DNA of 64,000 nucleotides from Escherichia coli. Its GTDB lineage: Bacteria; Pseudomonadota; Gammaproteobacteria; Enterobacterales; Enterobacteriaceae. Where the stretch lies: NCBI RefSeq assembly GCF_050320075.1, contig NZ_CP190021.1, one strand, 5' to 3'. Shown piece after piece: positions 2,442-9,821 of this stretch. Position numbers and translations under genes: made by a program. How positions within the stretch are numbered: position 1 is the first letter of the stretch; every line of letters starts with the position of its first letter. The notes under the pieces were generated by a model. It did not search any database, had not been told where the DNA came from, and was given only the letters and a program-made list of their open reading frames with translations.

Positions 2442-3157
2442 GCGCACGTTCACGGGCACTGATCCCCCTCAGCGCAGAACAACAGGCCGCCATGCAGGCG
2501 GTGGCTGTCACAGAACAACGTCGTCGTCAGGGACGCACACTTTCAGCATGGCCTTATGCCACCGCTTTCTTTCGCTGCCTGAATGGCAGTCGCCGGATTT
2601 CGCTGACCGATCTCCGCTTTTTTGCCCCTGCGCTGACGAAGGAGGAATTTCATGGCAACCGTCTCCTGTGGCTGGCTGCCGTGGATAAACTGATTGAAAG
2701 TTTTGGGGAAGTCTGTGTTCTTCCCCTGCCATCCGATGCGGGGCACCGTCTGTTCCCGTCCGTGCCTTTTCGTGAAGGTGAGCGTCGTCGTCAGAAAACC
2801 ACGCTGACAGAGCAGAAATACAGCCGCCAGCGGGAACGTGAGGCAGAACGACGGGAACTGGAATACCAGACATGTTTTGCTCAGGCGCAGATTGACCTTG
2901 CGTTTCATACTCCCGCCACGGTCGGAAGCTGGTTGTCCCGCTGGTCTGGTGTTGTTGAGGAGCATGATCTGGAAACGATTTTCTGGGGGTGGTGCGGGCG
3001 TTTTCCATCACTGTCATCATTTGACCGGTTTTTCTGGCAGGAGGAACCACTCTGGCGGCTGATTTTTGAAGCCGGTGAGGCCGGTCGTGGTGCACCGGTA
3101 CAGGTACGTGCACTTGAGCAGTGGATGATCCCGAACAAGCTGGAGAACGTAATATGA
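2438..3157 (+). CDS. psiA: PsiA
   Basis: 239-aa ORF. Its start overlaps the psiB stop (ATGA) and it is in the canonical position after psiB. The length matches PsiA. Confidence 0.85.
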
Positions 3158-4712: not shown

Positions 4713-5080
4713 TTTACTCCCCCGCTCCGGCGGGGGTATGGCCTGCCAGGCCGCCGGAAAACCCTGGCAGGCTTACGCCTGCCTGAAATGCAGGAGGGCC
4801 GCGCCTGCGGCGCTGCCCTTCCTGCCCGTCATGGTGTGAGGCATTTTTCTGTTATGTCGTTTCTGTTGTTCTGATTTCCGGAGGCGGGGACACCTTCGGC
4901 TCCCGGCTGCCTGGCGGCATCCGGTCGTCAGGCCCGACTCCGACAGGCAGCTGCTGGCGCACCCGCCAGTCTCCGCCGAACCCGCTGGCGCGGTTTCGGG
5001 CTGCCGCTACGGTCCGATGTCTGAAAAACCAGGCTTGCAGCGACCGTTCCGGTCGCGCCGCCCCTGTCGCGCCGGAAACG

Positions 5081-5420
5081 GCGCTCCCTGCACACCTGAC
5101 GGTGTGTAAGGCCACTGCGCCTGATGGCGCAGTCAACCCTTCCGCCGCCACCCCTGCGGCCTGTTTCCCGCTGTGGACTTTCCGGGGGCTGGAGTAACCA
5201 CATCCCGTTTCAGCAGTCCAGGGGAAGATATACCGTCCACAAAATTTTTAGCCATAAACCCGGCAAAAAATTTTGCGTCCGCCCCCGGACAGCTGCCCCG
5301 TGACGTGGTGACGGACGCCCCATCGGAAAGGTCCACTGCGGGGAGAAACCCCGAAGAAGTGGACGGCAGAAGGGGCTTTCGCCCCTCCGGGGAGCAACCG
5401 GTCGGCCCGGCGACCTGATT
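5081..5420 (+). repeat. Frpo/ssi-like element, copy A (about 320 bp, homologous to 7959-8300)
   Basis: Blocks shared with copy B: GCGCTCCCTGCACACCT.ACGGTGTGTAAGGCCACTGCGCCTGATGGCGCAG ... GGACTTTCCGGGGG ... CCACATCCCGTTTCAG ... CCCCGGACA.CTGCCCCGTGACGTGGTGA ... CGGAAAGGTCCACTGCGGGGA. Internal long-range complementarity (GGACTTTCCG / CGGAAAGGTCC; CAAAATTTTT / AAAAATTTTG at the apex). Ends at a strong RBS. Confidence 0.7.
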
Positions 5421-5968: not shown

Positions 5969-6235
5969 ATGAGACCATCAATTATCTTCGCAACCGCCGA
6001 GTATGTAAAGCGTCTGCGTGAAGAGTGCCTGCGGGAGAATAAACCCCTGCACCGCCATACCCGCTTCAGACGTCAGGAGCTGGCACAGGATGAGATTAAC
6101 CCGGACGTCCTGGCGATGAGCGGCCATATCGCCAGACGCTGCAGTGAGCAGAAGCGGGTGCGTATCCCCGCTATGAAAGTCAGCGAATGGGGCCACCTGC
6201 TCCGCGCGCTTGAAATTGAGCGGGTCTGCCACTGA
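5969..6235 (+). CDS. hypothetical protein (88 aa)
   Basis: GGAG RBS and a basic protein. No family recognised. Confidence 0.45.
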   Translation: MRPSIIFATAEYVKRLREECLRENKPLHRHTRFRRQELAQDEINPDVLAMSGHIARRCSEQKRVRIPAMKVSEWGHLLRALEIERVCH

Positions 6236-6299: not shown

Positions 6300-7238
6300 G
6301 TGAGTCAGAAGAAAACCACCACGACGCCCACGCCGCATGATGCCGCGTTCCGGTCGTTCCTGGCGAATCCCGACGTCGCCAGAGATTTTCTGGAACTGCA
6401 TCTTCCGGCGGAGTACCGGCAGTTGTGCGACCTGTCCACGCTGAAGCTGGAACCCGCCACCTTTGTTGAGCCGGACCTGCATCAGTACGCCAGCGATATC
6501 CTCTGGAGTGTGAAAACCACCGGGGGTGAAGATGGCTATGTTTATACGCTCATCGAGCACCAGAGCACCGAAAATCTGTACATGCCTTTCCGCATGTTAC
6601 GTTACAGTGTGGCGGCGATGCAGAGACATCTGGAGCAGCACAAAACGTTGCCACTGGTGATTCCTGTACTGTTCTATCATGGTGAGCGCAGCCCGTACCC
6701 GTACAGCATGAACTGGCTGGACTGTTTTGAGAATCCGGCACTTGCGGCTAAAATATACACAAAGCCGTTTCCGCTGGTTGATATCACTGTCGTTGATGAC
6801 AATGAAATCATGAACCATCGCCGGATGGCCGCACTGACGCTGCTGATGAAGCATATCCGCCATCGTGACATGATGGAGCTGCTGGACAAACTCCCGCAGG
6901 TCATGGTGGAAATTTCAGACGAGCAGGTGCGTGTTCTGATTCATTACATCGTTAACGCAGGGGACTCTGTATCACCGGAATTTATGCGGGCGCTGGCTGA
7001 GCGTCTGCCGCAGCATGAGGATAAACTGATGACTATCGCAGAACGTCTTGAGCAAAAAGGTCGCCAGGAGGGCAGGATGGAAGGACGCATGGAAGGACGC
7101 ATGGAAGGACGCATGGAAGGAGCGCTTGAAAAAGCCCTGGCTATTGCGTGCCAGCTTCAGAAAATGGGGATGACGCCGGAGCAGATTAAGCAGGCTACCG
7201 GACTTTCCGATGACGAACTGAAGAAAATCACTCACTGA
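6300..7238 (+). CDS. Rpn family recombination-promoting nuclease (YhgA-like, PD-(D/E)XK); full-length 'RpnL'
   Basis: GTG at 6300 follows GGAGGA. N-terminal signature PHDAAFRSFL...DFL..HLP ... SDILWSV ... Y.L.EHQS ... MPFRMLRY ... PLVIPVLFYHG is typical of RpnA-E/YhgA-like proteins. Confidence 0.85.
   Translation: MSQKKTTTTPTPHDAAFRSFLANPDVARDFLELHLPAEYRQLCDLSTLKLEPATFVEPDLHQYASDILWSVKTTGGEDGYVYTLIEHQSTENLYMPFRMLRYSVAAMQRHLEQHKTLPLVIPVLFYHGERSPYPYSMNWLDCFENPALAAKIYTKPFPLVDITVVDDNEIMNHRRMAALTLLMKHIRHRDMMELLDKLPQVMVEISDEQVRVLIHYIVNAGDSVSPEFMRALAERLPQHEDKLMTIAERLEQKGRQEGRMEGRMEGRMEGRMEGALEKALAIACQLQKMGMTPEQIKQATGLSDDELKKITH
7029..7238 (+). CDS. predicted intragenic small protein (RpnS-type antitoxin, 69 aa) in frame within rpn
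   Basis: In-frame ATG at 7029 with GAGGA 8 nt upstream. It starts exactly where the free-standing paralog (7300-7458) starts (MTIAERL.QKG). It encompasses the EGRM repeat. Confidence 0.45.
   Translation: MTIAERLEQKGRQEGRMEGRMEGRMEGRMEGALEKALAIACQLQKMGMTPEQIKQATGLSDDELKKITH
7068..7124 (+). repeat. 12-nt tandem repeat (GAAGGACGCATG, about 4.7 units) encoding (EGRM)n
   Basis: Read directly: gagggcaggatg gaaggacgcatg gaaggacgcatg gaaggacgcatg gaaggagcg. In frame inside rpn. Confidence 0.95.
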
Positions 7239-7250
7239 GTAAACATCACA

Positions 7251-7275
7251 GCCCGGCAAAATGCCGGGCTTTTTT
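7251..7275 (+). terminator. intrinsic terminator after rpn
   Basis: GCCCGGC-aaaat-GCCGGGC followed by TTTTTT. Confidence 0.8.
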
Positions 7276-7299
7276 GTCAGCAGGAGCAGAGCAAATAGC

Positions 7300-7458
7300 A
7301 TGACGATTGCAGAACGTCTTATTCAAAAAGGCGCACTTGAAGTGGCGCGGGAAATAGCCTGCCGGCTGCGGGATATGGGCTGGACGCCGGAACGGATTCA
7401 GGAGGCAACCGGACTTTCCGGTGAAGAACTGAAAAAGCTGTTTCCTGATGAGCAGTAG
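7300..7458 (+). CDS. stand-alone RpnS-like small protein (52 aa), paralog of the Rpn C-terminal domain without the EGRM repeat
   Basis: MTIAERLIQKGALEVAREIACRLRDMGWTPERIQEATGLSGEELKKL aligns with Rpn residues MTIAERLEQKG-(EGRM)n-ALEKALAIACQLQKMGMTPEQIKQATGLSDDELKKI. GGAG lies 13 nt upstream, which is suboptimal. Confidence 0.55.
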   Translation: MTIAERLIQKGALEVAREIACRLRDMGWTPERIQEATGLSGEELKKLFPDEQ

Positions 7459-7488
7459 CCTGGCATTCAGCCAGGCTGTGAATCACGC

Positions 7489-7740
7489 TCACACATCCTC
7501 TGCCGTTTCCCCCAGTTCATTTTCCAGTCGCCTGATGATATCTGCCTTACGCATCCCCTGCATGTGAGGCAGCAGGTCACGGACTGAAAGTGCCTGGGTG
7601 GTCCTCCAGACGGTGACGTCCACCTGTTCCGCATTTTCCCAGGCGTGCCATGTTCTCTGCGTCACGCCAAATTCTCTGGCCGCTTTTTCGCGTGACCAGA
7701 GCATGCTTTTTCGCCAGATTCGCAGTTCCCAGCCGGTCAT
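7489..7740 (-). CDS. small XRE/Cro-like HTH regulator (83 aa), the only minus-strand gene between psiB and the Frpo-B copy
   Basis: HTH-like segment REKAAREFGVTQRTWHAWE. Twin palindromes lie directly upstream. Confidence 0.65.
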   Translation of the reverse strand: MTGWELRIWRKSMLWSREKAAREFGVTQRTWHAWENAEQVDVTVWRTTQALSVRDLLPHMQGMRKADIIRRLENELGETAEDV

Positions 7741-7754
7741 AAAACACCTTTGAA

Positions 7755-7842
7755 AAAGTGAAAAAACTTCACTTTATTTTATCATCACAATTGCCAAATC
7801 AGCGCGATAAATAAGTGTAAAAAAGTGAAGAAATTTCACTTT
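7755..7842. promoter_or_regulatory. two 21-bp palindromic operator-like sites AAAGTGAA-N5-TTCACTTT
   Basis: 7755-7775 (aaagtgaa aaaac ttcacttt) and 7822-7842 (aaagtgaa gaaat ttcacttt). Centres are 67 bp apart, in the AT-rich gap between the HTH gene and Frpo-like copy B. Confidence 0.7.
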
Positions 7843-7958
7843 TTTTGCTTGTAAATGTCGTGCGGTTTTCTCTGTTTTCACCTGTGCGGGAGTGGTGTGC
7901 CAGTGACCACCACATGCCATTGTTGTGCCGTCGTTTTTCTTCAGTCGCGCCGTATGCG

Positions 7959-8300
7959 GCGCTCCCTGCACACCTTACGGTGTGTAAGGCCACTGCGCCT
8001 GATGGCGCAGCTGTCTCTGCCTGTCTGCCGCCGCACTGCGGCCTGTTCTCCGCAGACGGACTTTCCGGGGGTACATACATGACCACATCCCGTTTCAGTC
8101 GTCCAGGGGGGAGATGTACCAGCCACAAAACTTTTTGCCGCAGGCGTCAAAAACTTTTGCGTCTGCCCCCGGACAACTGCCCCGTGACGTGGTGAGCGTC
8201 CCCCGTCGGAAAGGTCCACTGCGGGGAAATCCCCGAAGACCCGGACGGCAGAAGGAGCTTCGCTCCTCCGGGAAATGACCTGGCTGTCCCGGCAGTCGTG
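7959..8300 (+). repeat. Frpo/ssi-like element, copy B
   Basis: Homologous to 5081-5420 (see copy A). Ends at the AGGAG RBS of the next gene. Confidence 0.7.
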
Positions 8301-8319
8301 ACGATGAGGAGACAATGTG

Positions 8320-9168
8320 ATGAATCAGACTTTACCCACTGCTGACCTGAATACTGCCGGCACGACAGATGTTATTCCGTCTGTGGCTATCGACCGCATC
8401 ATCGCGCAGCGTAACGAAGGTATTGCACTGTTCATGCAGGCGATGGAATGCCTGGCGACAGCGCGCAAGATTCTGCTCGATGCGTCAGGTGATATTTTTC
8501 TTTACGGGTTTGAAGACTGCGTGACTGATTCCGTTCGTCGCATAGATAAACCGGAAGAAGCGAAAAGGAATATCACCCGTCTTGCCGACCGGAAAATCTG
8601 GGACCGCCTGATGACAGATACGGGCATGTACACCTTCATGAGTTCATGCCAGCGTGATGAGTGGAACAGCCAGCTGATGAGCGACACCTGTCCTGAAATC
8701 ACCCTGGACAATGTACTGGCAACATTCCGCCATCTGAATGCCTGCAAGATGCAGACATTTGAACAGGGACTGATTGATGTCTACCGGAAATTGTCATGGG
8801 ATTACAGAACCAATAATCCCTGCCGTCTGGGTAAGAAAATCATTATTGAAAACCTGCTGTACCGCTGGAGTAACGGGCGTGTGACGCTGGACTGCAGCGG
8901 ACGGGAGGCACTGGATGACCTGGTACGTCCGTTTTATCTGCTGGAGGGGCGCAACGTTCCTGACTTCAGGAACAGTATCGGGGCGCAGTATGGTGAATTT
9001 CTCGGGAACGGCGACAATGTCGGTAAGCTGTTAGAAGGGGAATATTTTACGGTGCGTGGCTACCAGAAAGGGACCGTACACATTGTCTTTAAGCGTTCTG
9101 ACCTTGTTGAAAAACTGAATGATATTATTGCACGGCATTATCCAGGTGCATTGCCGCCACGAGTCTGA
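8320..9168 (+). CDS. conserved hypothetical leading-region protein (282 aa; possibly DUF4942-like, from memory only)
   Basis: AGGAG at 8306-8310. A GTG at 8317 or ATG at 8320 could be the start. Immediately downstream of Frpo-like copy B and followed by a terminator. Confidence 0.65.
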   Translation: MNQTLPTADLNTAGTTDVIPSVAIDRIIAQRNEGIALFMQAMECLATARKILLDASGDIFLYGFEDCVTDSVRRIDKPEEAKRNITRLADRKIWDRLMTDTGMYTFMSSCQRDEWNSQLMSDTCPEITLDNVLATFRHLNACKMQTFEQGLIDVYRKLSWDYRTNNPCRLGKKIIIENLLYRWSNGRVTLDCSGREALDDLVRPFYLLEGRNVPDFRNSIGAQYGEFLGNGDNVGKLLEGEYFTVRGYQKGTVHIVFKRSDLVEKLNDIIARHYPGALPPRV

Positions 9169-9253: not shown

Positions 9254-9595
9254 TCAATTGTTGTTCATATCGATGCCATCTTTCCTGCCTGAATCTGTCT
9301 TTTTAGGTGCTGTTTTAGAGGAAGAACGGCGGGATGGTTTTTTCGATTCTGCTTCCCGAATAATGTCACGAAGTGCCTTCTCTCCTACTTCATACCCTGC
9401 ATTTTTGAGCGTGTCACGAACATCTGCCAGTGTATAACCCTTTGTCCTTACCAGGACAATAATGTCATCACGAATGGCATCAAGAAAATCACGCAATGTT
9501 TTCCGTTGAGCGGTGAGATCTGGCAATTCCGATAAAGCAGCTTTTGCCAGCTGGATGTCATCATCTGAGTAAAATTTTTTAGAAGCCATTGGCAC
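9254..9595 (-). CDS. hypothetical protein with Lys/Ser-rich basic tail (113 aa), adjacent to oriT
   Basis: Clean ORF with GGAGAG upstream of the GTG start. The C-terminus KKPSRRSSSKTAPKKTDSGRK suggests nucleic-acid binding. Function unknown. Confidence 0.55.
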   Translation of the reverse strand: MPMASKKFYSDDDIQLAKAALSELPDLTAQRKTLRDFLDAIRDDIIVLVRTKGYTLADVRDTLKNAGYEVGEKALRDIIREAESKKPSRRSSSKTAPKKTDSGRKDGIDMNNN

Positions 9596-9738
9596 TTTCT
9601 CTCCGTTTCATGTTGAAGTCTGATTTTATCATCAAAAACTGACTCCTGGCAGGGCTGCGCCCTGCCTCTGCCGTCTGCATAAGACTATGATGCACAAAAA
9701 TAACAGGCTATAATGGCCTGAAAAACGGGACAGGATGT

Positions 9739-9800
9739 GCAATTGTATAACCGCGCACGCGCGATTATACAATTGCCTCCTGGTCAGGGCTTCGCCCCGA
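9739..9800. other. oriT: oriT core (17-bp inverted repeat plus adjacent nick region)
   Basis: GCAATTGTATAACCGCG (9739-9755) versus CGCGATTATACAATTGC (9760-9776) is a 17-bp inverted repeat with one mismatch, followed by CTCCTGGTCAGGGC directly upstream of nikA. This matches the published description of R64 oriT as I recall it. The exact nick position is not determinable here. Confidence 0.75.
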
Positions 9801-9821
9801 CACCCCAGTAAGGAGCTGACC

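Follow-up and report, generated by a model that had tools for sequence, protein, structure and literature searches.

A counter-oriented regulator gene in an IncI1 leading region

The window analysed here, 64,000 nt of an Escherichia coli contig (NZ_CP190021.1), covers the leading and transfer regions of an IncI1-type conjugative resistance plasmid, and many IncI plasmids of Salmonella and E. coli match it at 100% identity between positions 6200 and 9200. The subject is a small minus-strand gene for an 83-aa helix-turn-helix (HTH) protein of the Xre type, referred to below as the regulator, together with the region upstream of it, which carries two exact 21-bp palindromes (O1 and O2; Table 1) that are its candidate operators. 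The gene is monocistronic and runs opposite to all flanking leading-region genes. It is “YgeA” in R64-style annotation and Hp21 (O3K_25942) in pESBL; the “ygeA” of the F plasmid is a different gene, downstream of Frpo1 on the side readable from the transferred strand (T-strand), and the shared name is a coincidence of nomenclature.

Table 1. Features of the regulator locus, in window coordinates.
Feature	Position	Strand	Basis
Gene for the 83-aa Xre-type HTH protein (regulator)	7489-7740	-	Open reading frame; translation (MTGWELRIWRK...); RefSeq annotation
Putative proximal operator O1, AAAGTGAA-N5-TTCACTTT (reads AAAGTGAAAAAACTTCACTTT)	7755-7775		Palindrome search
Putative distal operator O2, AAAGTGAA-N5-TTCACTTT (reads AAAGTGAAGAAATTTCACTTT)	7822-7842		Perfect arms extend over 7819-7845
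Extended -10 element TGaTAAAAT of the regulator promoter (predicted)	7776-7784	-	Sequence reading; conserved in IncI variants
Shine-Dalgarno-like AAGGTG	7745-7750	-	4 nt before the ATG; read from the minus strand
GC-rich hairpin AGCCTGGC-loop-GCCAGGCT	7459-7478		Lies between a convergent 65-aa reading frame and the regulator gene
Frpo/ssi-like single-stranded DNA promoter repeat, copy B	7944-8272	+	81% identity to copy A at 5066-5391
DUF4942 putative methyltransferase	8320-9168	+	Pfam DUF4942, E = 2.4e-50; PHROG DNA methyltransferase, E = 5e-17

The annotation of a twin plasmid gives the order ssb, DUF905, a ParB-like gene, psiB, psiA and ardA; then a 144-aa open reading frame (ORF), an 88-aa ORF, Rpn, an Rpn-fragment ORF and the regulator (minus strand); and finally DUF4942, a MobC-like ORF (minus strand), nikA and nikB. 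From this order, which runs from leading genes to nikA/nikB, the origin of transfer (oriT) is placed near 9600-9820. The DUF4942 gene is the divergent neighbour of the regulator and the first leading-region gene after oriT. In pESBL the regulator orthologue occupies 68116-68367, also on the minus strand, and lies 580 bp from an 849-bp DUF4942 gene, as in the window.

The first-pass annotation had proposed that such a gene cannot be read from the incoming T-strand and becomes expressible only after complementary-strand synthesis, and this holds. Six single-stranded DNA (ssDNA) promoters have been mapped in pESBL (IncI1), upstream of leading operons, three of them of the Frpo/ssi type (class 1), and ssb, psiB, and ardA are transcribed from ssDNA promoters (PMC12672017). 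All three of these genes are on the plus strand of the window, so that the transferred strand is a template for plus-strand genes, and a minus-strand gene, which it cannot template, needs the complementary strand first. The same annotation had this as the only minus-strand gene between psiB and Frpo-like copy B. That is effectively the case, but RefSeq adds a 65-aa hypothetical protein there (WP_001161115.1; 7774-7971, minus strand), spanning the O1 edge, O2 and the hairpins; since a domain search with it was empty and the ORF is not called in sister plasmids of 84% identity, it is probably a spurious call.

In an AlphaFold model (32-sequence alignment; predicted local distance difference test score, 91.2), the regulator is a compact bundle of five helices (residues 3-12, 17-24, 28-35, 42-60, and 65-75) with a helix-turn-helix, and nearly all of its best 50 Foldseek matches in the PDB are Xre-type HTH proteins (Aca2, HipB, HigA2, SinR, CapH, and C proteins), which together assign it to the Xre type. 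At the sequence level, PHROG 6962, which has no function assigned to it there, matches residues 1-60 (E = 1.8e-13); the PADLOC and NCBIfam libraries gave only weak generic HTH matches; and in a phmmer search of PDB sequences the only solved chains found were two of Aca2 (the better at E = 8e-4, over residues 1-38). The family is small, with 79 clusters at E <= 1e-3 among 1.84 billion representatives.

Paired palindromes and a predicted promoter

The presence of twin palindromes upstream of the HTH gene had been reported from the first reading, and is borne out. Both 21-bp sites are exact, with centres 67 bp apart; a search for the 16-base palindrome pattern, allowing up to one mismatch, finds only O1 and O2 in the 64-kb window, against a mean of 0.00 in 100 dinucleotide-preserving shuffles. 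The minus strand reads ...TGaTAAAAT / AAAGTGAAGTTTTTTCACTTT / ttcAAAGGTGttttATG, with the predicted extended -10 box directly abutting O1, and O1 covering the predicted start. Transcription is predicted to begin near 7769, which would put the centre of O1 at about +5 and that of O2 at about -63.

A word-index homology search gave close relatives only, and it was an alignment-seeded search for loci that opened up the family. The comparisons below cover about 50 enterobacterial plasmid loci with proteins 30-53% identical, obtained by tblastn of plasmids and an alignment-seeded scan with one genome per species. Nearly all have the outer motif AAGTG-N9-CACTT centred 22-26 bp before the ATG, in hosts that include Yersinia, Serratia, Erwinia, Buttiauxella, Citrobacter, Enterobacter, and Hafnia, among others. 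A -10 hexamer (TAAAAT, TATAAT, or TAGAAT) abuts the AAGTG in the window, as it does in the majority of about 35 relatives. Beyond the 160-nt upstream zones, the same motif has just nine exact matches in 541 kb, each of which falls within an operator region that is duplicated or displaced, or else within a separate intergenic region.

At least 14 other loci have a second site 55-57 bp upstream of the first, and in Buttiauxella-type loci there is a third, 55-56 bp farther up; the spacing is 64 bp in Hafnia and 67 bp in the IncI1 type. The IncI1 spacing had been described as roughly six helical turns. As an argument this is weak: 67 bp is 6.4 turns at 10.5 bp per turn, and helical phasing in general is taken as no more than an observation, as 56 and 67 bp are about one turn apart but none of the spacings is a whole number of turns, and 64 bp does not fit.

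Several kinds of conservation tie the sites to the protein rather than to the surrounding DNA. In IncI-like plasmids whose regulator is 84% identical, the intergenic DNA is almost entirely different, yet both palindromes and the 67-bp spacing are retained; TGATA(A/G)AAT is conserved in IncI variants, and the 5′ untranslated sequence ttcaaaggt(g/a)tttt is kept in all IncI-type variants. Inner operator bases and the recognition helix of the protein vary together, in three classes: GTGCA with [CS]LR[ST]YKxYE, GTG(A/C)C with I[SG]LR[ST]YKRYE, and GTG(A/T)A with T(Q/L)RTWHAWE. A homologue in phage SopranoGao has a site of this kind too, equally far from its ATG.

A palindromic site that overlaps the predicted promoter and start of its own gene, and that is conserved with it (by abutment to the -10 box, by its persistence as a footprint in IncI plasmids, and by co-variation), is characteristic of an autorepressor, as the first-pass annotation had suggested. 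From their position, conservation and co-variation, O1 and O2 are best explained as autoregulatory operators to which the regulator is predicted to bind. It is extremely improbable that they belong to something else, whether a host factor, a terminator-like hairpin or the ssDNA hairpins of an ssi element. The region is AT-rich and the palindromes can form small hairpins in the T-strand fold, but their position is fixed with respect to the regulator -10 box and ATG and not to the neighbouring hairpin promoter, they follow the gene into a phage, and their sequence changes with its recognition helix. An Rfam search gave sub-threshold matches only, to no known RNA family, and a terminator scan made no call at the palindromes. 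CRP and Cra sites were rejected for misfitting spacing: the sites read GTGA-N7-TCAC, where CRP would need N6.

The regulator is opposite to klcA, psiA, psiB, ssb, ardA, orf88, and ParB-like genes in about 30 loci, which is every locus with recognisable markers; it lies 2-4 kb from the nikA/oriT side; and, in the window as in all related loci, it is monocistronic and converges with the gene downstream. In at least 21 loci of different lineages the promoter-operator block adjoins a GC-rich, strongly structured Frpo-like element, which in some cases has no sequence similarity to the IncI1 Frpo. The gene beyond this hairpin varies among plasmids (DUF4942, DUF945, or orf88-like).

In the window, the adjoining element is Frpo-like copy B, which matches F-type Frpo cores in thousands of plasmids; the T-strand of 7741-8316 has a predicted fold of -136.6 kcal/mol (z = -9.5 against shuffles). 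Copy B drives the DUF4942 gene from the T-strand, and its control by the regulator is a candidate only. The palindromes had been said to abut this hairpin promoter, which is true only loosely: copy B does come after them, but 101 bp separate the end of O2 from the repeated Frpo core. In the twin plasmid (L001, 8160-11192), an ISCro1 element of the IS66 family splits Frpo-like copy A, which is intact in the window (5066-5391).

Rearranged forms of the promoter region occur in some relatives. Units of 480-580 bp comprising a Frpo-like hairpin, an AT-rich -10 box, and an operator are duplicated in L004 (7531-8106), L019 (10478-11055), and L013 (10315-10892), upstream of other leading genes and 92-98% identical to the copy on the regulator side; the ORF lists downstream of these orphan units include no regulator ORF and nothing else convincing. 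In pYR4-type plasmids (L003, L015, L018, and L041; about 835 bp upstream of the regulator), a relE/parE-nadS toxin-antitoxin cassette carrying its own TTCGTACTNAGTACGAA operators has come to lie between O2 and O1, and O2 has ended up beside a terminator hairpin and the Frpo-like element. L042 and L043 have a similar arrangement. Separately, L066 (NZ_CP014662.1) has an exact outer-motif match at 3102-3120 (AAGTGGTATAAAAACACTT), inside a 3′-5′ exonuclease gene downstream of yacAB; since its inner bases are not palindromic, it is probably a chance match.

On its other side, the regulator gene is followed by the GC-rich hairpin of Table 1 (minus-strand RNA fold of 7440-7500, -23.2 kcal/mol, z = -2.75), which may end transcripts; it has no T-run, and the terminator scan made no call. 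Beyond this, the 65-aa ORF between Rpn and the regulator (7261-7458, plus strand) is a diverged duplicate of the C-terminal helix-turn-helix tail of Rpn, with 49% identity to Rpn residues 244-310 minus the MEGR repeat, and probably a gene fragment, the counterpart of family 20 in Samuel et al. (2024). The Rpn gene itself contains a perfect 12-bp tandem repeat (ATGGAAGGACGC x 3.8; 7077-7121, plus strand) encoding (MEGR)n near the C-terminus, whose copy number could vary. A strong intrinsic terminator after Rpn (7250-7270, plus strand; a 9-bp stem with seven GC pairs, then TTTTTT) should stop the operon driven by Frpo-A before it is read antisense into the regulator gene. The other conserved counter-oriented gene is the 113-aa “MobC”-labelled ORF adjoining oriT (9254-9595, minus strand; YggA/Hp23 in pESBL), a homologue of which (33-62% identity) is found next to nikA in almost every related locus and shares the strand of the regulator.

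Predicted expression after entry, and possible further targets

The most likely mechanism is an ordinary one in an unusual and conserved position: a negatively autoregulated Xre/Aca2-like repressor whose expression depends on double-stranded DNA (dsDNA). It is reasonably probable that the regulator is a small Xre-type repressor, dimeric and most similar to the N-terminal domain of Aca2, and that it represses its own promoter. From established knowledge of conjugation and the orientation of the genes, the minus strand of the window enters the recipient, and the regulator would be silent until complementary-strand synthesis because its template is the plus strand. Once the DNA is double-stranded, host sigma-70 RNA polymerase would fire from the predicted extended -10 promoter. 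Accumulating protein would then bind O1, and could block initiation since this site starts right after the -10 box and covers the start site; it would also bind O2, both steps being suggested by position, conservation and co-variation. Occupancy of O2 would probably strengthen or sharpen repression, by dimer-dimer contact or by occluding upstream promoter contacts. On balance, conversion to dsDNA would set off a brief burst of expression, which the protein itself would then bring down to a low steady level. With only two detectable operators in IncI1, the visible cis regulon is the regulator gene itself.

The timing may be relatively late. In the F plasmid, ssDNA promoters stall complementary-strand synthesis, and oriT-proximal loci are converted last (bioRxiv 10.64898/2026.01.09.698686); if this order holds for IncI1, the regulator would be expressed late in conversion of the leading region. 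The “temporal switch” of the first-pass annotation is thus sound as to when expression becomes possible, while the further action it attributed to the protein is unsupported.

Several points weigh against the autorepressor reading. Both Pfam HTH matches fall below their gathering cut-offs (HTH_31, E = 7e-5 and 23.5 bits against 27; HTH_3, E = 0.007 and 16.8 bits against 23). The -35 region is poor (CGCTGA), so that the promoter call rests on the extended -10 box, and the binding, start site and expression of the regulator are all predictions from sequence. The pYR4-type cassette separates O2 from O1 by about 800 bp, from which it follows that O2 is not strictly required next to the promoter. 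Finally, it is not obvious what selection would favour in a protein that represses only itself, and since both gene and position are nonetheless conserved, an unseen target or a second function is likely. The features that are not ordinary are the strict counter-orientation, the place beside the first ssDNA promoter, and the apparent absence of other targets.

One proposal for such a target, made from the first reading, is that protein bound at O1 and O2 also silences adjacent leading genes (from Frpo-B to DUF4942, perhaps others) upon conversion to dsDNA. This is unlikely. The block does adjoin a structured Frpo-like element in those 21 or more loci, dissimilar elements included; the hairpin, -10 box, and operator are duplicated as a unit before another leading gene, without a regulator ORF, in L004, L013, and L019; and in pYR4-type plasmids the inserted cassette has left the distal site and the hairpin together. 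However, of 41 Frpo-like copies scanned 21 have a nearby site, all of them adjacent to a regulator except for the three duplicated units and two displaced distal sites, so that the operators were rejected as a general part of the Frpo module; Frpo-A in the window has no site. The gene next to the hairpin is not constant, and Frpo-type promoters silence themselves on conversion to dsDNA, where they would be inactive anyway (PMC12672017; bioRxiv 10.64898/2026.01.09.698686).

A promoter-like match on the plus strand (GTGAAA-16-TATCAT) overlaps O1, and might in principle be a divergent dsDNA promoter under operator control. Its TATCAT reads TATCAC in L010, L057, and L058 (sister IncI1 plasmids), however, and among about 35 relatives no promoter directed at the leading genes is found repeatedly at one fixed offset, for which reasons the candidate was rejected; the TATCAT is probably a by-product of the reverse complement of TGATAAAAT. 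Nor do further operators appear: with the loose outer motif at zero or one mismatch, the 64-kb window has only two non-palindromic matches beyond O1 and O2, and the other 50 kb of a sister plasmid has a single intragenic match and no palindromic operator. In pESBL, transposon insertions in the orthologue are neutral, Hp21 being classed by transposon sequencing as non-essential (probability 1.00) for both maintenance and transfer (PMC4288162). With the evidence against outweighing that in favour, control of the neighbouring genes is kept as a minority hypothesis.

A different way to relate the two promoters would be as a strand-state sensing module of MOBP-type plasmids, pairing a hairpin promoter active only as ssDNA with a divergent, self-repressed promoter active only as dsDNA. 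The regulator would be made only once complementary-strand synthesis reached the oriT-proximal end of the leading region, and could then act, with its promoter, on the hairpin: possible actions are clamping the flank against re-extrusion of the hairpin, modulating its extrusion through the supercoiling that divergent transcription causes, and insulation from read-through. The duplicated hairpin/-10/operator units lacking an ORF would fit such a module, as would a distal site that is still next to the hairpin where a cassette has been inserted, and if true it would set the length of the zygotic anti-defence burst. It is nevertheless rated as quite improbable.

Alternatively, the main targets could lie outside the plasmid, on the host chromosome or in the operators of incoming or co-resident plasmids and phages (a “solo Aca”), with the local sites only setting the level of the regulator itself. 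A role in repressing genes that arrive on incoming elements has been proposed for solitary Aca-like regulators (PMC9410906), and this would supply the benefit that autoregulation alone does not obviously give. The outer motif is common to regulators with 30-50% identity in many plasmids and one phage, making cross-recognition conceivable; but the co-variation between inner operator bases and protein speaks for private specificity, and the regulator is the only operator-controlled gene seen in any relative, so that cross-repression would have no evident consequence. This too seems a rather long shot, and simple autorepression remains the preferred reading.

Leading regions are now viewed as anti-defence islands, expressed from ssDNA in the first minutes after conjugation, and how this burst is timed and ended is an active question. 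The regulator is one of few leading-region families that cannot join the ssDNA programme. It is found in more than 2,000 IncI-type plasmids, many with extended-spectrum beta-lactamase genes, and even distant plasmids preserve its orientation, its operators and its place next to the first hairpin promoter. The operators offer a direct experimental handle, and a built-in marker of conversion to dsDNA. Should the protein prove to act elsewhere too, the enterobacterial I-type leading region would have its first regulator; otherwise the gene encodes a routine autoregulated repressor.

Comparison with known systems

The controller (C) proteins of restriction-modification systems are fold neighbours of the regulator, although with Foldseek E-values above 1. 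Like it, they are small Xre-type dimers with paired palindromic operators in their own promoters, and they govern when genes are expressed in a newly entered host. Unlike its sites, which are 55-67 bp apart, C-boxes are adjacent; and C proteins activate and then repress, controlling a downstream nuclease gene, while no nuclease gene lies downstream of the regulator.

A sequence homologue is found in the IncL plasmid pOXA-48 (31.6% identity, tblastn E = 7e-7, with a shared N-terminal motif), at a position (orf19-orf20-orf21, by resD, parA, parB, and nuc) that matches the XRE-like Orf20 (PMC12365149; PMC12361523). Orf20 is essential for maintenance of pOXA-48 and can be deleted only with complementation (PMC12365149), in contrast to the non-essential IncI1 orthologue. 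It appears to keep a harmful plasmid gene off, and a controller- or antitoxin-like role of this kind can be envisaged for the regulator as well, given this homologue and the presence of HipB, HigA2, and restriction-modification controllers among its fold neighbours. Such a role is very unlikely in IncI1, where the gene is monocistronic, has no co-oriented partner, and is dispensable in pESBL; Orf20, by comparison, is the second gene of an operon, with a restriction-endonuclease-like gene next, outside the leading region. The palindrome also differs: in pOXA-48-type plasmids (L002, 5440-5470; L006, 5905-5930), an 18-bp palindrome, ATGTTCAAATATGAACAT, in the promoter region of the Orf20 operon is a candidate operator.

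The CUP elements of pKM101 are promoters of ArdK-type control. ArdK, of the IncN plasmid pKM101 and the IncW plasmid R388, is an HTH repressor that limits expression of establishment and anti-restriction genes after entry (PMC9723621), and is as such a functional precedent for a leading-region repressor. It belongs to the KorA family, however, and acts at direct repeats in five promoters, whereas in IncI1 no regulator site is present at other promoters. The two are unrelated in sequence: the PDB includes ArdK, but there were no ArdK or KorA chains among the PDB sequence matches of the regulator at E <= 10, and a relationship was rejected.

The regulator almost certainly belongs to family 22 of Samuel et al. 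(2024), which has 2,333 members, a median position of 2 from oriT, and strand -1 in their Supplementary Table. The order given there, DUF4942 (family 24, position 1), family 22, then the Rpn fragment and Rpn (families 20 and 18, positions 3 and 4), matches that in the window exactly. Their work tabulates the family as enriched, so that both the family and its reversed orientation were already on record. No mention of family 22 operators, promoter, autoregulation, or synteny outside IncI1 was found in their main text, and the operators and promoter layout of the family appear to be undescribed. Three of the 2,333 members carry an Aca6 label.

Aca2, the anti-CRISPR-associated HTH autorepressor of phage ZF40 (PDB 7VJP, 7EZY), is both the best solved relative by sequence, sharing the motif MTxxEL..RK...AAxE.G...R.W..WE in an alignment that reaches only residues 1-38 for 7EZY, and Foldseek rank 1, with a probability of 0.99 and 28% identity but an E-value of 0.14. 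At 83 aa against 116-125 aa, the regulator lacks the C-terminal dimerisation domain of Aca2, and DUF1870, the Aca2 family domain, has no match on it at E <= 0.1; for these reasons it resembles Aca2 without being a member of the Aca2/DUF1870 family. Their operators differ as well (AAGTG-N9-CACTT for the regulator, TTCG-N6/8-CGAA for Aca2), and, unlike Aca2, which is encoded behind an anti-CRISPR gene in an operon that it represses, the regulator is outside any operon with an anti-defence gene. What the two have in common is a broader design: Aca2 is a dimeric repressor whose own promoter contains two inverted repeats; its context is one of anti-defence, and after entry it produces a burst of expression and then shut-off (PMC6765145).

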